From a virus (lineage: Duplodnaviria > Caudoviricetes), in IMG/VR virus record IMGVR_UViG_3300027819_000006: a stretch of 64,000 nucleotides of DNA. One strand, written 5' to 3'. The notes beneath the pieces were generated by a model that worked only from the letters and a program-made list of their open reading frames with translations, was not told the origin of the DNA and did not search any database. Every line of letters starts with the position of its first letter. Position 1 is the stretch's first letter. Positions 11,234 through 63,629 of the stretch are shown here, piece after piece. Both the position numbers and the translations under genes were made by a program.

Positions 11234-12097
11234 TTAGCAAATTATACGCCAAACTATATCTATTTCGTCTTCCCAGATGCGAATTAGTCTATAACCATTA
11301 TCTTCAGCTATTCTATTTTTTCTATTATCATTATCAATCTTTCCCTTTTGCCATTCATTTACAGGTCCATTAACATATATTCTAGGATTACAGTGATAAT
11401 AGTTACCATCAACTTCTATTAACATGTTATATTCTGGAATATAAAAATCAAAATAAGATTTATTTAAATAAAACTGACTCTTATACTCTATATTTAAACT
11501 ATCTAAAATCTTAGCTATTTTTATTTCAGGTTTACTTATTCTATATTTAAGACATTTTTCATTTCTATTTTTATTTCTTGCAATCCACATTTCTTCTGCT
11601 TTTTCAAGACCATGTTTTTCTATCCATATATCTTTAAGTGATTTACCATACATGGGATTTTTGCTTCCAGAAACATCTGCATGATTTTCTGACATACTAA
11701 CAGTTGATTTTTTTATTCTTTCATCAGTTTCTTTAGTTAAGCCTTTATTCCATGTTATTATAGATCCTTGTTCAAGCCTTTCTATTCGTGTTTCAGATAT
11801 TTTATTACATGATTCGATAGAATGTTTTCTACCATACATGGGATTATTTTCACCCTTTGCTAAACCTTTTTCTATTCTAGTTTTAGATATTTTAGCTTTA
11901 GTTTCTTCAGATGCTTTTCTCCCTTTCAACTTTCCTGAATTTTTACATTTATGACATTTTCTATTCAGCCCAGTAACTTCGTTCAAGCAATTTGTCGCAG
12001 CACATTTATATTTGATATATTCTATGCATTCTTGACATATTCCAGATTTATTTCTATTGCCTAATTCATTAATACCACAAATATAGCATAATAGCAT
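11234..12097 (-). CDS. free-standing homing-type endonuclease: Zn-finger + NUMOD3 repeats + DUF559/Vsr-like nuclease
   Basis: CxxC pairs; SEETKAKIS and NPMYG repeats; C-term YFDFYIPEYNMLIEVDGNYYH...LIRIWEDEI. Confidence 0.8.
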   Translation of the reverse strand: MLLCYICGINELGNRNKSGICQECIEYIKYKCAATNCLNEVTGLNRKCHKCKNSGKLKGRKASEETKAKISKTRIEKGLAKGENNPMYGRKHSIESCNKISETRIERLEQGSIITWNKGLTKETDERIKKSTVSMSENHADVSGSKNPMYGKSLKDIWIEKHGLEKAEEMWIARNKNRNEKCLKYRISKPEIKIAKILDSLNIEYKSQFYLNKSYFDFYIPEYNMLIEVDGNYYHCNPRIYVNGPVNEWQKGKIDNDNRKNRIAEDNGYRLIRIWEDEIDIVWRIIC

Positions 12098-12114
12098 TAT
12101 ACATTCTCAAATAA

Positions 12115-12196
12115 AAAGACTTACAGTGTGGATAAGAAATAATAGCAAAGCTATTTTCACTGTAAGTCTTTGTAAACTACTATTATTTCTTATCCA
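12115..12196 (-). ncRNA. structured 5' leader with two interleaved perfect inverted repeats (14 bp and 17 bp)
   Basis: 12115-12128 pairs with 12158-12171; 12129-12145 pairs with 12180-12196; lies between a putative promoter and the endonuclease SD. Confidence 0.65.
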
Positions 12197-12207
12197 ATAA
12201 TAAATAT
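12197..12207 (-). promoter_or_regulatory. putative late promoter TATATTTATTA
   Basis: same motif recurs in intergenic gaps at 19259, 54766, 58535, 59411, 61075 and 63542, each upstream of a minus-strand gene. Confidence 0.55.
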
Positions 12208-12229
12208 ATTTGAGAAAATGCAAAATGCA

Positions 12230-14608
12230 TTATTTTAGTTTACATTTTATAAAAAATCCCTTATCGATATCTTGTAAATATTCATATTCTAAATTTACTA
12301 AATTTAACAAATATTCTATAGCTTTAGGAGTTGGTAGCCATACGTGCTCTCCCTTACCTATGGTTTGCCATCTCTGCATATGTTCTTGTGCTTCTATGCA
12401 TCTAAAATTTGGACATCCTATAAATAATAGTGAATTTTCATGCATCAAATTTTTACAATTATTTAAGAATTCTAAAGGATTTGTATGCTCTATTACTTGA
12501 TCAGAAAATAGAATATCAAATTTTTTATCAGTAAATAGTTCAAAACTACCATATAGAAGCTTGTTTTTTAATTCTGGGAATAATTCTAATCCTTTATCTA
12601 TGCTGGGCTTATTTATATCTACTCCTACAGCATCATAGCCTTCTTCTATAGCAGCTTTTACAACCAGTCCGCAGTTAGCTCCAATATCTATAAAAGAACC
12701 TGAATTTTTGTACTGCTTAGCTTTCAAAACATTGGGTTTAGAATGATTATTAAAAACTTCTTGCCATCTAAAACTATATTCATCAGATATATTCTTCTCT
12801 TGATCTATATGTATATTGTAATCATTTTTCTGTATGAAATCTAATTCCTCATTTACATAGTATTGACTTCCTGGAATATTAAAATAGAATTTAGATTTTT
12901 TGCTATTATCTATCATTAGCTTAGGTTTTTCTAAGAATTTATCAATAGCTGCTATAACATGCTCTGGTTCGATGCTAGACATGCATATAAATTGACTAGT
13001 GTTTACGCATTTTGGAATAAAAGTTAATCCACCATTGTCTAACAAGTTAAAAAATTGTGAATGTTTGCATGAAATGCATTCTAGAGCATTATTCTGTATA
13101 TAGTATATATATTCTCTGTTAGCATTGCTTAAATAAGTAGAAGCTGCTCCATTGATAGCGATAGAGGGAATATTAAATGATCTTGCTATATGAATTGGAC
13201 CATTATCTCCACCTAAGAAAAATTCGCTATGTTTAATTAGAGATAATAGTGTTTTTAAATCGACTTTATGATACTTGCTGTCTGTCAATTCAGAAAAATC
13301 AGATAGACCAGGCTCTATTACTTTATGACCTTTTTTTTGTAAATATTCTATTATAGATTTATATTTAGCTTGTCCTAAAGTTTTTCCTCCCCACCCGCTA
13401 CCATCTGCTACTACCACAACATAGGGTTTTAAATGAGAAAAATCTTCATATAGATGATTACTATTATCTAGTTCAGCATATTTATCTTTTGGATTATTAA
13501 ACGTTATATCTGCTGTTCTAGCATAGGAATCAATGAATAATTTATTTTTTGAGCTCTCATATGATAGATCGAGAGAGATTTTTAACTGATGATTAGTATT
13601 GTTTAAATGATCTTCTAATATTAATTTGTCATCTATTTTTACTATTTCATCGGGCTTATGAGCAAAATATTCTACTATTTCAGGTTTAGCTGTATAGAAA
13701 GTAATTTTGCATCCTTCATATTTTTGTCTTAATTTCTTTACTATCGGCTCACATAGCAATATATCTCCAATACCAACTACACGAGAAATTCCAATGTCAA
13801 CTATTCCAGATGTCTGTTTTAGTATATCTAATATTCTATTATTGTGTTCTGTAAATGCAGCATTTCCCATCAGAGTTGGAAATGTTCTCTTTATTTCTAT
13901 ATCATCATCTTTTTCTATAATTTCTTCTTTAATGTCTACAGATTTAGGTGCTCCAATTTGCTTAGCTATATCTTCCAAAGACATCTGCTGTTTTCCACCA
14001 CCAAATTTGACCCATTGAACAACAGTAATTTCTGCTGGTATGCAACCTCTATATCCTTTTTCTGCCCATTGCTTCAGTACAAGCCCAGGCATGAATAGAG
14101 GCTGTCCATCTTTTACTTCTACACATTTATTCCAGTCTACTTCTACATCTTTGAAATGACAGATTTCATCTAAACATATTTCTTCTATTTTTGGAGGATT
14201 TGATATTCTGAAACCAATTGTATTCAGAGGATGATCTGGAATATCTACATTTCTATATTCGCAATGTCCAAGAGCATATTTACAGTGCTTATTATTTGCA
14301 AAATCTTCTAAATGTGCAGCTATATGTCTTGGAAACCACATTATGTTATTGACAGTCTTGTAAAAAATAATATCAGCAGAAGCTAACTTAAGTGCCTCAT
14401 TGAATAGAGAGACACTCTCGTCAGTTTTAATAAATCTTATATTTAGAGATATTTCTTTACACTTCTCTTTAACAGTATCTAAATCTCTTATAGAAGACAC
14501 AATTAAATCTATATTTTTATGAGTCTGTTCAAACACATTCTTGATAGAGTTTTGAACATGTATGTCATCTGAATTTTCAGCTATTAATATGACGGTTACT
14601 AAATCCAA
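12230..14608 (-). CDS. multidomain glycosyltransferase: GT2-like + GT9-like + class I SAM methyltransferase
   Basis: RVVGIGDILL, FFLGGDNGPIHIARSF (GT9); FIDIGANCG and FSDQVIEH (MTase). Confidence 0.8.
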   Translation of the reverse strand: MDLVTVILIAENSDDIHVQNSIKNVFEQTHKNIDLIVSSIRDLDTVKEKCKEISLNIRFIKTDESVSLFNEALKLASADIIFYKTVNNIMWFPRHIAAHLEDFANNKHCKYALGHCEYRNVDIPDHPLNTIGFRISNPPKIEEICLDEICHFKDVEVDWNKCVEVKDGQPLFMPGLVLKQWAEKGYRGCIPAEITVVQWVKFGGGKQQMSLEDIAKQIGAPKSVDIKEEIIEKDDDIEIKRTFPTLMGNAAFTEHNNRILDILKQTSGIVDIGISRVVGIGDILLCEPIVKKLRQKYEGCKITFYTAKPEIVEYFAHKPDEIVKIDDKLILEDHLNNTNHQLKISLDLSYESSKNKLFIDSYARTADITFNNPKDKYAELDNSNHLYEDFSHLKPYVVVVADGSGWGGKTLGQAKYKSIIEYLQKKGHKVIEPGLSDFSELTDSKYHKVDLKTLLSLIKHSEFFLGGDNGPIHIARSFNIPSIAINGAASTYLSNANREYIYYIQNNALECISCKHSQFFNLLDNGGLTFIPKCVNTSQFICMSSIEPEHVIAAIDKFLEKPKLMIDNSKKSKFYFNIPGSQYYVNEELDFIQKNDYNIHIDQEKNISDEYSFRWQEVFNNHSKPNVLKAKQYKNSGSFIDIGANCGLVVKAAIEEGYDAVGVDINKPSIDKGLELFPELKNKLLYGSFELFTDKKFDILFSDQVIEHTNPLEFLNNCKNLMHENSLLFIGCPNFRCIEAQEHMQRWQTIGKGEHVWLPTPKAIEYLLNLVNLEYEYLQDIDKGFFIKCKLK

Positions 14609-17192: not shown

Positions 17193-18359
17193 CTATCCGA
17201 TCTTTATTGACTTAACGATATGCTGTCCAGGCAGAGAACATAAATAATTCTGCATTATTTCAGTAGCAGACAAACTTCTATTAAATATTCTAGTAAGCCC
17301 TATAACTCCTGTCAGTCCTGAATTAGACAAATCTAATGATTTACCAATCACCAATCTTGAATTTGCTATCAGTTGTGGAATTGATGTAAAAGCACTATAA
17401 GAAGCACATGCTCCATTTATATAGATTGTAGCACCAGAAAAACTTCCAGTACTTCCATCAAATGTAGCAGCAACATGATACCATTTGCCTAAAGCCAAAG
17501 GACCAGCAGTGAAACTATTAGTCCCTATGTTCAATTTTAATACACCTGAATCTTCTTTTAATCCCAAAGTTTCAGTAGCACCAGATCCTATAGACATTAT
17601 CTGGCTGTGACTGGTAGCAGCAAATTTCACAAAGCATAATACAGACATTCCTGATAATGCTGTGCTAACAGGATTGAATAAAGCTGATGACGCACTTTCC
17701 ATCCAAGATTTACCATCAAATCTAAATCCGCCATCACAAGGAGAATAAGTCCAACCTGTCACAGTAGCACTTAATCCATCTCCTGAAGCGCAACCTTTAA
17801 TACTAGCATTCAGAGAATTTCCTGATCTATCTGCTACAGCAGTTAAAGAAGTACTCAATTCTTGTCTGTTATATGTATAATATAATACAAGACTTGATCC
17901 AGTTACACCATTAGAGGGTAGTTGATCAATATTTGGTCTTATTCCTGTACCAAAATAATTTAGAAGACCTAGTCTCTGAAAACCACTTAGAGAAATATCT
18001 CCAAAATAAACTCCTAAATCGTTTATAATGACACTCAATTTATTATAATTAGACATAGCTGTACTGATAATATATTGAGTAGAGTCAGAAGTCATGCTTC
18101 CTTGCTGAGCTGTATGAGACTGACAATACAAAGCTTGAGAACCTGTAACTGAAGATAGACCGGCTGTAGTTCCAATAGTCAAATATAGAGTTCCGCTGCC
18201 ACCATCATTAGTATTGCTTCTGATTCTGCCTACAGAGATAAAATTATTTCCTGTAAGAGCATCAGATTGTACTAAATTGAATATAGGCTGCTCATTGAAA
18301 GATCCGGTATTACCAAGGAACTTTAGTTTTGTCTCAATAATGAAATTGTCAGTCTGCAT
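17193..18359 (-). CDS. virion structural protein with LamG/concanavalin-like domain
   Basis: S/T/G-rich; KWYHVAATFDG, IYING, RIFNRSLSATEI. Confidence 0.8.
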   Translation of the reverse strand: MQTDNFIIETKLKFLGNTGSFNEQPIFNLVQSDALTGNNFISVGRIRSNTNDGGSGTLYLTIGTTAGLSSVTGSQALYCQSHTAQQGSMTSDSTQYIISTAMSNYNKLSVIINDLGVYFGDISLSGFQRLGLLNYFGTGIRPNIDQLPSNGVTGSSLVLYYTYNRQELSTSLTAVADRSGNSLNASIKGCASGDGLSATVTGWTYSPCDGGFRFDGKSWMESASSALFNPVSTALSGMSVLCFVKFAATSHSQIMSIGSGATETLGLKEDSGVLKLNIGTNSFTAGPLALGKWYHVAATFDGSTGSFSGATIYINGACASYSAFTSIPQLIANSRLVIGKSLDLSNSGLTGVIGLTRIFNRSLSATEIMQNYLCSLPGQHIVKSIKIG

Positions 18360-19161
18360 TTATTTCACCATTATACCAAATTTCTATAAATTTACATTTA
18401 AGAAAATTTTTTATTTCATTTTTTCTTGTTTTATCTTTTTCAATTGCATATTCATGTCTTTTTTCATAGTATTCTATAACAATATTTTTTTCTTTATCAT
18501 ATCCATCTACAAAATATCCTAATTCTTTTATATGAAATTCTCCACCGTTCATTCCATGCTGAAAATTATAGTTATACTGCTTACCATATTCATCAATAAT
18601 TTCACAAGCTTTGGGACTGAATATAGGAAATACTTTACCTATTTTTTCTAAAAATGCTATAGCTTTTATTTTTTTTTTAATTTTAGTTTCGTCAGATTGT
18701 TTAAATTTCATTCCTTTGTTCCAAGCTATTTGTCCCTTATGAGCTTTACTATTTTTCAATCTGTGTTCTTTAGTTTGAACTCTGCCTGTCATAGCTTTCG
18801 ATCTTTTAATATTGGATTCTTCCGAATTCCAAACTTCATTATTATTTTTTCTACTTCTAATTCTTTTATTGTTTCTTTCTAAATCTTTTTTATAATTTTT
18901 CTTATTTCCTTCACTTATATTCTTTTTATGCTCTTCTGTTTGAGGACTCGATTTTCTTTTCTTACCTTATTGTCTACAACCATCTCTATTTCCTATTTTT
19001 GAACAACTTCTACATAATGTTGAAAAAACATTAATTGTATTGTTACACAAATCATTACTACATTTCTTTGTATTAATTCTATGTTTACCACAATACTCTA
19101 TACCCCTCTTTTCTGAATTTATATTTATTTTTTTATTACAATTTTCAGTTTTACATTTCAT
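18349..19161 (-). pseudogene. Zn-finger/NUMOD3/PD-(D/E)XK-type endonuclease with one in-frame TAA at 18967-18969
   Basis: track ORFs 18967-19161 and 18349-18792 are in the same frame with an open 58-codon linker (GKKRKSSPQTEEHKKNIS...); C-term YFVDGYDKEKNIVIEYYE. Confidence 0.75.
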
Positions 19162-19172
19162 GGTGTTTCTCT

Positions 19173-19260
19173 AAATTAAAATTGCTAAGTATTGGATCTT
19201 AAAAGACTATATGTCTAAAGATGCTTAGCAATTAGAATTTAAGTCTTTTAAGATCCAATA
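19173..19260 (-). ncRNA. second structured 5' leader with interleaved inverted repeats
   Basis: 19180-19189 pairs with 19224-19233 (extends to 19173/19240 with a 2x2 loop); 19190-19208 pairs with 19242-19260 (19 bp perfect). Confidence 0.65.
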
Positions 19261-19410
19261 ATAAATATAACTGAATATAAAAAAAACAAAATTGACACTA
19301 TTGAAGCTCCTTTATAGATATTTCTCAATAAATTCTCTACTGTTAAACCACTTTTCATGAAAATTGTTATTTTAGTAATCTGGATTATATCAAATTTAGA
19401 GAACCATTCC

Positions 19411-27715: not shown

Positions 27716-28813
27716 TTAACTTCCACTCGCAGAAACTGTTAGCTGAAAAACACCGCGGGCACCACTTTGCAGACCTACACAGTCTACTAAAACAGTTCCA
27801 GAATTTCCCAAAGCTGTTTTCATTTGAAATGTAGCTATACCTTGTGAATTTTGTTGTACTTTAGAATTCACCAGTGTTGCTATACTTGTATCTCTAGATA
27901 TTCCAGCATATCCAGACACATCTGTTCCATTTGTAGTTTCTACTGTAAAAGAGACTGTGTCTCCATATTTTACTGTAGCTATAGAGGGCTTTATAGATAA
28001 TACAGACACTTTTAGAGAACCTTTAGGCAAAGTTATCAGACGGTATCTTTGAGCTATGTCAGGATTTGATGTAGGCTCAAGAATAGGCAAATTCAGAATA
28101 TTTATGTCTGGATTCGATGGGTTGCTGACATCGTATAACTGATAATTTATTTCCACTTATTCTGGTTGTCACCAACCAGGTTAGACTATATCTTCATATT
28201 ATTACTTCTAATATGCTCTGCTTTTCGATCTATTTTATAAGATCTACTCTACTCTGTGAATATTTTATTATTCCATTTCGATAGTCGTTGAGCTGACTTC
28301 ATTTTACAGAAGATTAGTTGCTGGTTGACTCTAATTAAATATTTTTAAGCATTCACATTCATTATTTCTAATCATGTTGTAGCTATTTAATTTTAGCAAG
28401 CTATTCCAACAATTAACAGAGTTTATAGACGACTCAATAATTTATCTTACAGGATCGTCCCCGAACGAAAATTTTGTAATTTTAAAACTGCCATCGTTCT
28501 TGGCAAGCAATTCTCTTCCTTTGGTCGTTAAAATGCAATCTATGATCGCCGAATTGTTAACTTATAGTTATAATTCCTATAAGACCGGACTATTTCTTCA
28601 ACTGGTATATGTTTCAGTTGCTCGGGGCTTTATGAGATATTATTAGTAAGATTCTTCAATCTCTAGTCTCTGCACCTTTCTATATACTTATTATCTATTC
28701 TATAGAGTAGGCTCAAGATTGGCATTTCAGCTTTCCTTGAGTTTACCGAGTTTTTCATTATATATCGCTATATAAGCTACCTATGATCAAGTAGATGAAT
28801 CAAGATATGCCAC
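27716..28813 (-). CDS. conserved large-phage structural protein, 185 aa after splicing (exons 28813-28790, 28549-28454, 28153-27716)
   Basis: AAGGAG + GTG; spliced product MAYLDSST|AIIDCILTTKGRELLAKNDGSFKITKFSFGDD|EINYQLY matches the recalled MGYLDN..VDAILTKKGRELLA...DDEIDY family. Confidence 0.85.
28154..28453 (-). ncRNA. group I intron (300 nt, no ORF)
   Basis: exon ends U, P1 GACGAU/GUCGUC with U-G; P AATTGTTGGAA, Q AACCAGCA, R CTCAACGACTA, S AAGATATAGTCT; terminal G. Confidence 0.9.
28550..28789 (-). ncRNA. group I intron (240 nt, no ORF)
   Basis: P1 CUACU/GGUAG with U-G; P AAACTCAAGGAA, Q AATCTTGAGCC, R TGCAGAGACTA, S AAGAAATAGTCC; terminal G restores the frame. Confidence 0.88.
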
Positions 28814-57371: not shown

Positions 57372-58509
57372 TTAAACTATTGATTTCAATAGCTCATGTA
57401 TTTTTTCAGGTTTCTGTTTTAAATCTTTTTCCCAAATTATCTCTACTTTATAACCATCATCTTTAATTCTGTTTATTCTGATAGTATCTTTTTCTCTAAT
57501 TTCTTTTACTGTCATTTTTGATTGATTTATATAGAAGCTTTCTACATACATCTCTGGATTTCCATGCCAATAATTTCCAAATATCTCTATAACACAATTT
57601 TTACTTTTTATATAGAAATCAACCAAACTTTTAGAAACCCAGTGTTGCCATATTATGTCATCTTTGTCAAAGTATTTAAGTAGAAAATTTTCATAAAAAT
57701 AAGTTTCTAGTTTATTAAACTTAAATTTTGATTTATATTTTTGTAGATTGACACCTATTAATCTGAATTTTTCGACATTTTCAGGATTAGAAAAATATAA
57801 ATCACTAGCTATTTTAAGATTCTTAATGTGTTCTTCAGATTTAGGACCTTTCATTTTATGAGACCAAGTTATTTCTCTGCCTTTAAGTTTTTCAGATATT
57901 TTTTTTACATTCTCGTTAGTCTCTTTAGTTTCACCCTTATTCCATACTACTAATTCTCCACTTTCATACATCTCTCTTTGAGTTTCTTTTGATTTCTTCT
58001 GCGCTTCTTCGTTGTGACCCCAATTGTTCTTCACTCTAGATATATGTCCTCTAATGTATCTTTTGTCGCCAACTTTGTATTGATATTTGTATGAAAACAA
58101 ACTATCGATTTTTTCTCCACATCCACAAGAACAAGTTGGCCAAACTCCATCTAGACAATAGTCTACATAAAATTGATGATAACTTATTTGATGAATTCTA
58201 GTATTATGTTTAGCTAATGATATTAGAGTTATGTATTCTTTTGGACAAGATTTACACTTAAAATCTTTTTTAATATTTTTTACTGATCTCATACTATGAT
58301 TTAAATTATAGATACCCTTTGGATCATGTAAATCTTGTCCACAACCACATTTACATTTAGGATACTCGCCATTAAAATAAAAATCTATATAGAATTTTCT
58401 AGAATCTATTTTATGAGATCGTGTCATATGATACTGTAAAGATCTGTATGTTTTAAAAATTTTCATGCGTACACATTTTACATCTAAATTCTGCTTCTTC
58501 TGTTTGCAT
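57372..58509 (-). pseudogene. free-standing C2H2/NUMOD3/DUF559-type endonuclease with a 5' frameshift near 58460
   Basis: AAGGAG + ATG at 58509 gives MQTEEAEFRCKMCTHE, which joins IFKTYRSLQYHMTRSH only after a +1 shift; C-term VDFYIKSKNCVIEIFGNYWH. May still be expressed from ATG 58466. Confidence 0.65.
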
Positions 58510-58602
58510 TTTTAAGCTCCTTTGTTTTGTATATTAATAAATATACAATGAGAAACTTCAAAATACATATGATCAAGTAATCTTATATAAATTTTAATAA
58601 AA

Positions 58603-59376
58603 TTAAAAGTTGAGCAAAGCCTGGTCGTAGCGCAGCTGTATATCGACAGTCGCAGCTTCTGCAGTTGACATATCTAAGTCGCCGAATGCAGCATTTGTAA
58701 TCCATGCTCCTCTCATTTGCCATTTCTCTACTTCTGCTCCAACTGGATCATATAGAGACAGTTCAATAGTTTTCTTGTAGAATGCAGCATAACCAGCTCT
58801 ACCAGTGATAGTTTCAAAGCTTAGTCTGATCCATTCCATTACTTTTTGAGAAGCAGAAGGTGAAATTGGATCATATAGACCAATTGTAATTTGATCCCAT
58901 TCTGCTTTACCAGCAATATATCTTTTGCTGTTCAAGAAGTCTATTGTGATAGGTTCAATGTTGATTGTGGGTCTGGTTGCAGTTCTAGCTATATATGAAG
59001 GAATCATTTCTCCTCCACCTATATCAAAGCTGAACAGCCATCTATTTTTTCTTTTCAGTGATTATTATCTTGATAGCATTTAACTATCAATTCTAATAGT
59101 TTTTATTCCTATTAGCTTGGACTATATCATCAATTATACCAATTTATACATGTTTATACTAACAATGATGTATAAATTGTTATAAATGTTGGTCTTTCTT
59201 GGAAGTATTATTGCAACTTCTAGTCTCTGAACTTTCTACTTTGTGTGTAGCTTAGCTGCTGATTGCCATTTCTCAGGTTCCCAGCAATTTGACCAATTTA
59301 ACGAGTCCAATTAGAATTTAGGCTCGAATGCATCTGGCAGCATTTGTGCTACTGTCAGAGGTGATGGTAATGACAT
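58603..59376 (-). CDS. tail tube protein (gp19-like), 169 aa after splicing (exons 59376-59320, 59055-58603)
   Basis: spliced MSLPSPLTVAQMLPDAFEP|KRKNRWLFSF; WDQITIGLYDPI, GRAGYAAFYKK, EKWQMRGAW. Confidence 0.9.
59056..59319 (-). ncRNA. group I intron (264 nt, no ORF)
   Basis: exon ends U with U-G in P1; P AAATTGCTGGGAA, Q AATCAGCAG, R GTTCAGAGACTAG, S GATATAGTCC; terminal G. Confidence 0.92.
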
Positions 59377-63541: not shown

Positions 63542-63551
63542 AATAAATATA
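63542..63551 (-). promoter_or_regulatory. putative late promoter TATATTTATT for the sheath gene
   Basis: recurrent motif just downstream of the upstream gene's terminator. Confidence 0.55.
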
Positions 63552-63576
63552 CTTGAAAAAAGCTCAAAAAACAAAC

Positions 63577-63604
63577 TAAGTCTGACATTTTCATATCAGA
63601 CTTA
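63577..63604 (-). terminator. intrinsic terminator
   Basis: taagtctga-N10-tcagactta stem followed by a T-rich tract on the minus strand. Confidence 0.7.
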
Positions 63605-63629
63605 AGAATGCTACTTATAGTATATTTTT

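Follow-up and report, generated by a model that had tools for sequence, protein, structure and literature searches.

Interleaved repeats before mobile nuclease genes of a T4-like phage belong to a family of structured RNA leaders with two predicted alternative folds

The interleaved inverted repeats that precede a homing endonuclease gene of a large T4-like phage make up one member of a family of RNA leaders, at least 15 in number, that are alike in structure but not in sequence. We consider it about an even chance (probability roughly 0.5) that this region serves as 5' leader RNA to a self-contained cassette for a mobile nuclease and acts as a two-state switch limiting nuclease output. As judged from the sequences, the leaders are an uncatalogued structured RNA family with clear covariation. 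Homing endonucleases and TnpB are selfish genes that need just enough expression to spread without harming their carrier, and the leaders hint at how a phage, or its parasites, standardizes control of many mobile nucleases.

RESULTS

Phage and nuclease locus

The window, the whole 64,000-nt stretch of DNA that was analyzed, is AT-rich (~29% GC) with all genes on the minus strand, and it comes from a 271,885-bp contig of an uncultured phage in a groundwater metagenome. Tail sheath and gp19-like tube genes mark this as a large T4-like phage, as do gp13-like, gp32, and RecA/UvsX-like genes on the contig, a gene for a phage sigma factor, and three group I introns. In a search of sequencing runs the sequence was present only in groundwater DNA runs, with no RNA runs among them.

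Copy 1 of the leader occupies the 132-nt gap between a glycosyltransferase/methyltransferase gene (12230-14608) and HEG1, a free-standing homing endonuclease gene (Table 1). The HEG1 product has a Zn-finger-like N terminus, NUMOD3 repeats, and a Vsr/DUF559-like PD-(D/E)xK C terminus, with profile matches to NUMOD3 (E value, 4.9e-10), more weakly to DUF559/Vsr, and to PHROG homing-endonuclease families. Copy 2 precedes a second NUMOD3 nuclease gene, HEG2.

Layout of the two leaders in the window

A repeat search recovers both helices of copy 1, one with 17-nt arms that are 100% complementary (12129-12145 and 12180-12196; X' and X) and one with 17-nt arms that are 94% complementary (12112-12128 and 12158-12174) around a perfect 14-nt core (12115-12128 and 12158-12171; Y' and Y). 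The search reproduces all of the arrangement described in the first-pass annotation, in which X, Y, X', and Y' were called b1, a1, b2, and a2: the order b1-a1-b2-a2, perfect stems of 17 and 14 nt, spacers of 8 and 12 nt, and a zero gap between the last two arms. The small hairpin that it reported as a competitor of b (H3 in Table 1) is likewise present, and its placement of the leader before a NUMOD3/DUF559 nuclease gene agrees with the HEG1 profile matches. The search also returned an extra perfect 10-nt pair, 12104-12113 with 12207-12216.

When the whole window is scanned for perfect stems of ≥10 bp that interleave, just two sites come up, 12115-12196 and 19180-19260, compared with ~0.03 expected per window in Markov-simulated sequence, and both precede NUMOD3 nuclease genes. 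The exact 13-mer TATATTTATTATT has two occurrences in the window, one at each leader. At the Rfam gathering threshold the window matches only three group I introns and the leader has no family, while a permissive Rfam scan of 12050-12280 gives just sub-threshold miRNA-like hairpin noise; a literature search found no description of such a leader.

Table 1. Positions in the window of the leader elements, nuclease genes, and group I introns
Feature	Position	Strand	Remark
Motif TATATTTAT, late-promoter-like, copy 1	12200-12208	-	X starts 12 nt past its first base
X, 5' arm of 17-bp helix, copy 1	12180-12196	-	17 nt
X-to-Y spacer, copy 1	between 12180 and 12171	-	8 nt
Y, 5' arm of 14-bp helix, copy 1	12158-12171	-	extendable to 12174
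Y-to-X' spacer, copy 1	12146-12157	-	12 nt
H3, small hairpin, copy 1	12141-12155	-	6-bp stem, 3-nt loop; Y-to-X' spacer plus 5' part of X'
X', 3' arm of 17-bp helix, copy 1	12129-12145	-	
Y', 3' arm of 14-bp helix, copy 1	12115-12128	-	zero gap after X'
U-tract between Y' and SD, copy 1	12109-12117	-	8 T in 9 nt
Shine-Dalgarno (SD)-like GAGAA, copy 1	12104-12108	-	ATG 6 nt further, 12095-12097
Z, upstream of promoter, copy 1	12207-12229	-	pairs with 12095-12113; only in read-through transcripts
HEG1, homing endonuclease gene	11234-12097	-	287 aa; NUMOD3, DUF559/Vsr, and PHROG matches
Copy 2 leader	19180-19269	-	precedes HEG2
Motif, copy 2	19261-19269	-	
X, copy 2	19242-19257	-	pairing extends to 19260
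Y, copy 2	19224-19233	-	
X', copy 2	19193-19208	-	pairing extends down to 19190
Y', copy 2	19180-19189	-	
HEG2, NUMOD3 nuclease gene	18349-19161	-	single 270-codon frame, one in-frame TAA after codon 64
Group I intron	28162-28479	-	Rfam, 50.8 bits (gathering score met)
Group I intron	28566-28800	-	Rfam, 63.7 bits (gathering score met)
Group I intron	59093-59363	-	Rfam, 78.9 bits (gathering score met)

A family with a common layout

Fifteen copies are clear, 13 in the 272-kb genome and two in related metagenome contigs (L147 and L150); beyond these, one is weak (c4) and one decayed (c9). The sequence examined was ~170 kb, that is, the window with 30 kb upstream and 76 kb downstream, reached via 11 exact-protein look-ups. 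An automatic scan of these 170 kb at tolerant thresholds gives 12 sense-strand matches, nine of them starting right at the motif, at a chance rate of ~1 match per 140 kb of simulated sequence. Copies missed by the automatic scan came from inspection of motif occurrences, and those in L147 and L150 from a metagenome scan using an alignment of paralogous nucleases.

Every copy starts 11 to 13 nt after the first base of the motif and ends shortly before the ribosome site of a nuclease gene. The genes behind the leaders are NUMOD3/Vsr-type homing endonucleases (180 to 430 aa) and two TnpB genes, and also a zinc-ribbon protein and a C2H2/NUMOD3 protein. Over the 15 copies, the X helix is 11 to 21 bp long and the Y helix 9 to 17 bp, with 10 to 22 nt between Y and X' and 0 to 34 nt between X and Y; the X'-to-Y' gap is 0 nt in 12 copies, 1 nt in two, and 3 nt in one. 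An HDV-like ribozyme fold was considered and dropped, there being no joining strand between X' and Y'.

The upstream regions of homologous endonuclease genes, to which the first-pass annotation had pointed as a source of covariation, do not have this layout: it is absent at the gene start of HEG1 homologues at 80 IMG/VR loci (≤37% identity), and the leader is thus lineage-specific and not a feature of the nuclease family. Exact scans of IMG/VR with the promoter-plus-X 17-mer and with the conserved Y'/U-tract 15-mer returned chance single matches, none with the layout.

Pairing appears to be selected in RNA of the coding strand

Because the helices vary in length and the layout is pseudoknotted, one alignment of all copies would be unreliable, and selection was assessed from pairwise compensatory counts among alignable copies, the pairs compared including c8/c11, c8/c15, c2/c15, c11/c14, and c1/c12. 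Eight overlapping pairwise comparisons give ~20 double compensatory changes against one break. Between c8, which precedes TnpB, and c11, which precedes an endonuclease, Y shows three double compensatory changes and X one or more, all pairs being kept, and c2 and c15 differ by a U:A-to-C:G change in Y. Non-Watson-Crick positions on the sense strand comprise 14 G-U and 2 A-C, a bias that points to selection on pairing in the coding-strand RNA rather than in DNA or antisense RNA.

In the second TnpB leader, c15, X arms from c2 are combined with Y arms from c8, and both helices are intact. At the sequence level c15 (L233 14964-15072) is a chimera of window 19180-19269 (c2) and L227 15360-15466, the leader of the first TnpB: X, spacer, and X' are nearly identical to copy 2, and Y and Y' are identical to the first TnpB's leader. 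On the evidence of this chimera, leader modules recombine between cassettes of unrelated nucleases. We note that a 24-nt repeat common to c2 and c15 breaks Logan assemblies at window 19193-19216.

Two predicted folds compete for one strand

In all 15 copies, the 5' part of X' finds its complement in the spacer between Y and X', which is thus a mimic of the 3' end of X; H3 of copy 1 has an equivalent throughout the family. Compared with shuffled spacers, individual P values for H3 are mostly 0.01 to 0.08, and Fisher's combined P value over the 15 copies is 3e-8, whereas the other spacer, tested likewise as a control, gives a P value of 0.9. X' is therefore a contested strand that can pair either with X or, inside Y:Y', with the spacer in every copy, and with two partners available the interleaved arms can be read as two nested alternatives. 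In state A, X and X' would pair into a hairpin at the predicted 5' end that holds Y in its loop, while Y', the U-tract, and the ribosome site stay unpaired. In state B, a compound hairpin would form with Y:Y' as its lower stem and H3 as its upper stem, leaving 5 to 12 nt of X' unpaired.

Folding was modeled with nested structures only, as the programs used cannot represent pseudoknots. In prefix folds that end where X' has just been made, the predicted probability of X:X' is 0.73 to 0.98 in every copy. Once Y' plus 8 nt have been made, predicted equilibrium favors Y:Y' in eight of the 15 copies and X:X' in six, with one mixed, so that the equilibrium models give no uniform ground state. The ensemble energies of states A and B are within 3.3 kcal/mol of each other in five of the 10 copies tested. 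In the predictions, neither state makes the SD and start codon consistently more accessible than the other does, and masking of the SD as the distinction between them was dropped for this reason.

The U-tract is a feature particular to the leaders, in which 5 to 9 of the nine bases preceding the SD are T (mean, 7.1), compared with 3.5 in all 60 SD genes, leader genes included. Clear terminators of this phage, such as those that follow the sheath gene or immediately precede putative late promoters lacking a leader, have AU-rich stems of 8 to 13 bp and tails similar to the leader U-tract. With a U-rich tract directly after it, state B resembles these intrinsic terminators. Its Y:Y' stem is 9 to 17 bp and its apex, an interrupted region of 29 to 40 nt, is unusually large for a terminator; a simple consensus terminator scan does not call state B.

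The upstream motif is a putative late promoter

The 9-mer TATATTTAT resembles the T4 late promoter, TATAAATA. It has 19 sense-strand occurrences in the 170 kb, 13 of them intergenic, where intergenic sequence is ~9% of the total; one of seven antisense occurrences is intergenic. It precedes not only the leaders but also several leader-less genes and the tail sheath gene, and it is because of the latter that we infer a late promoter. With T4 spacing applied, nearly every copy would have its first transcribed base at position 1 or 2 of X, such that transcripts would start at, or within 1 to 2 nt of, X.

The motif of the sheath gene lies at 63543-63551 (minus strand), 99 nt upstream of that gene, and is preceded by a canonical hairpin-plus-U terminator at ~63576-63605. 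A terminator just upstream is often seen at leader-less late promoters and never at leader-bearing ones.

Two homing endonucleases, one TnpB, a TnsA-like gene, and the gene at window 57372-58466 have the same promoter motif and no leader, and the leader is thus optional. The endonucleases are at L230 14900-15489 and 17450-18377, the TnpB gene (422 aa) at L231 13430-14737, and the TnsA-like gene at L143 3568-4570; these leader-less nuclease genes have just 25 to 50 nt of unstructured leader. The remaining gene, in window region 57372-58545 (minus strand), is a third nuclease-like gene of the window (364 aa) that has PHROG endonuclease families in common with the C terminus of HEG1, and its motif sits within a 7-bp palindrome (58531-58550) without a two-state leader. 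The C2H2 zinc finger of this gene is divided over an 18-codon open reading frame (58509-58456) and the main one (start, 58466); the division falls at TTT TAA A, and either +1 frameshifting at this site or an assembly error in a homopolymer would account for it.

Start-site masking is predicted in read-through transcripts of some copies

From the upstream stop codon to the ATG, copy 1 (12095-12229) has a predicted folding energy of -39.5 kcal/mol (z score, -6.4). In this fold an outer stem pairs 12207-12229 with 12095-12113 and covers the end of the U-tract, the GAGAA, and the AUG, with the motif situated between its two arms. The translation initiation region (TIR) has a predicted unpaired probability of 0.50 in the transcript from the cassette's own promoter and 0.11 in read-through RNA, and none of 30 controls with shuffled upstream sequence is as low. 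The statement in the first-pass annotation that the SD lies outside the stems is therefore correct for the two interleaved stems and incomplete for the locus, where the outer stem buries both SD and AUG. Its contrast with the RBS-sequestering hairpin of T4 likewise does not hold for this outer stem, which would follow T4 logic, though solely in RNA whose start lies upstream of the promoter.

When 100 nt of native upstream sequence is added, predicted TIR accessibility is ≤0.2 in c1, c3, c6, c11, c13, and c14. The masking beats almost all shuffled-upstream controls (Fisher P value, 8e-4) and holds in about 6 to 8 of the 15 copies. In c7 and c13 the transcribed promoter motif itself pairs with the X-to-Y spacer over 12 to 13 bp, enclosing X in the loop; across the copies there is no general sign of an upstream anti-X element able to block X in read-through RNA (Fisher P value, 0.85). 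A T4-style rule that only the cassette's own late transcript is productive would thus apply to about half of the copies, by various means, and as an optional extra on top of the constant two-state core.

DISCUSSION

Proposed mechanism and alternatives

We propose that each cassette consists, in order, of a late promoter, the leader, and the nuclease gene, and that the leader would fold in two mutually exclusive ways. State A would form first while the RNA is being made, and state B, once Y' emerges, would be equally or more stable in about half of the copies. The switch would then throttle nuclease output from a strong late promoter, most likely through premature termination in state B and read-through in state A acting as the antiterminator; alternatively, state A may provide 5'-end protection and ribosome loading. 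The contested X' would follow classical attenuator logic (1:3 against 2:3) with Y:Y' added as a clamp. In c1 and about six others, pairing of upstream sequence with the SD and start codon would also make transcripts that read in from upstream untranslatable, as in T4. Among the three options raised in the first-pass annotation (a conformational switch, a knot-like stable RNA, and a DNA structure used in mobility), the switch fits best, given the presence of H3 in all copies and the similar predicted energies of the two states. Attenuation is our preferred route; a purely post-transcriptional role seems nearly as likely, and the two are not exclusive.

It is also possible, though we regard it as a speculative extension, that the leaders are a new class of promoter-proximal riboregulator placed before unrelated selfish nucleases (homing endonucleases and TnpB) in one phage lineage, namely a terminator whose upper stem is contested by its own 5' end. 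Escape might then be limited to RNAs from the cassette's late promoter, or a common phage factor acting on the small hairpin might serve as a master brake on all of the selfish nucleases.

Control of translation or stability without termination is the leading alternative, though less likely than not. Here the leader would set mRNA lifetime and translation yield, possibly as a timer in which nascent state A gives way to state B: in A a paired 5' end would be shielded from 5'-end-dependent RNases and a long single-stranded U-rich stretch would offer ribosomes a landing pad, whereas in B the 5' end would be exposed and the landing pad hidden. The start of X at the predicted first transcribed base in nearly all copies is consistent with this, as are the predicted order of A before B in eight of 15 copies, the strand-displacement route from A to B that the X-mimic spacer offers, and the Y helix, which reaches through the U-tract up to the SD in c2, c3, c5, c6, and c10. 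A precedent is the seg43(25) gene of Aeromonas phage 25, in which a highly stable hairpin directly precedes an RBS that is not sequestered (PMC2988022). In the leaders, too, a stable helix ends a few nucleotides before the free SD of a free-standing endonuclease gene, but seg43(25) has a single hairpin, and an interleaved partner, a mimic strand, and a multicopy family are not reported there. Arguing against translational control are the lack of a consistent A-B difference in predicted SD and start accessibility, the six copies that favor A at equilibrium, and the pairing of the X-to-Y spacer with the tail, which is not general (Fisher P value, 0.13).

Interleaved complementary segments normally indicate a pseudoknot, and the two long helices could in principle close together into a compact 5' cap structure that blocks an exonuclease or binds a protein. 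The Y-to-X' spacer, always at least 10 nt, is long enough to run back along helix X, and with X at the free 5' end threading is conceivable. Geometry makes such a knot improbable: with a zero X'-Y' linker, coaxial stacking needs the X-to-Y linker (0 to 34 nt) to span 25 to 38 bp, and that linker is effectively 2 nt in c3 and 0 nt in c12, which has only 1 nt between X' and Y'. Full simultaneous closure of both helices is therefore implausible in several copies, c12 among them. Perfect helices of 15 to 21 bp are also unlike known compact pseudoknots, and the conserved competitor H3 would have no role in a static knot.

A DNA-level element, either the ends or recombination site of mobile cassettes (IS200/IS605-like hairpins or cruciforms) or a nuclease operator of the kind that I-TevI binds over its own late promoter (PMC2988022), would suit a leader that travels with mobile nuclease genes, TnpB included, and whose modules are shuffled between cassettes, as in c15, but is very improbable given the strand-specific 14:2 ratio of G-U to A-C, the complete sequence differences among copies (hence no common protein site), spacers of 29 to 58 nt that disfavor cruciform extrusion, a location solely 5' of genes between the motif and the SD, and the absence of flanking target duplications beyond AT-rich similarity. 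A MITE or IS terminal structure was rejected on the common layout without common sequence, the strand-biased pairing, and the restriction to the promoter-to-SD interval.

Comparison with known leaders

In the T4 family, expression of homing endonucleases is controlled by leader hairpins combined with late promoters; I-TevI, I-TevII, I-TevIII, segB, and Aeh1 mobE have an RBS-sequestering hairpin whose 5' arm is missing from late transcripts (PMC2988022). The two-state switch that we favor is similar in setting, with a selfish nuclease gene behind its own putative late promoter in a T4-like phage, and in its presumed purpose of restricting nuclease synthesis, and copy 1 and about six others are predicted to mask the SD and AUG only in read-through RNA. 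It differs in that the constant feature lies downstream of the promoter, within the cassette's own transcript, and is built from a pair of long hairpins that compete with each other, together with a mimic strand and a U-tract; the SD is covered by none of these. Where T4 uses one hairpin over the ribosome site, at least 13 cassettes of unrelated nuclease families here share a single RNA device of greater complexity, whose pairing has persisted although the sequence has turned over completely and modules have been swapped. The copies offer a natural set of putative switches, identical in layout and different in sequence, that can be compared side by side.

Classical attenuators (the trp and pyrBI leaders, T-box, and PyrR/TRAP systems) place a terminator-like hairpin and U-tract between promoter and open reading frame, with an upstream segment competing for one strand of the terminator hairpin. 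In their predicted folds the leaders have counterparts of these elements. They differ in that the contested strand lies in the upper part of the terminator-like hairpin and not at its base, the lower stem is interleaved with the putative antiterminator, and no leader peptide, tRNA, ligand, or protein sensor is evident. Metastable leaders, such as those of hok mRNA of plasmid R1 and the MS2 maturation gene, form an early 5' hairpin and later a long-range fold that pairs the SD directly, and they minimize synthesis of a harmful or low-dose protein. The predicted sequence of events here is similar, a 5' hairpin forming first during transcription and an alternative long-range fold following, but masking of the SD is inconsistent, and the leaders are unrelated to those systems in sequence or family.

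Decay and turnover of cassettes

Several minor observations concern the state of individual cassettes. The decayed cassette c9 (L227 18860-19330) retains a promoter-like motif, a lone 8-bp hairpin, a U-tract, and GGAG, followed by a truncated zinc-finger open reading frame and then a NUMOD3 remnant of 167 aa; here leader and gene decay together. At L147 2120-2150, an ATG at 2131 lies at the proper distance from the leader's GGAG but out of frame with the 359-aa nuclease open reading frame, whose first start is at 2147, and this could be due to an assembly indel, a short coupling open reading frame, or a frameshift. L145, a JGI contig from another sample, has leaders c5 and c6 identical to those in L144 but does not carry the same set of genes. 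A 105-aa gene is missing from it, and the decayed nuclease behind c6 is not broken in the way seen in L144. As far as the two contigs can be compared, these differences indicate strain-level turnover of cassettes.
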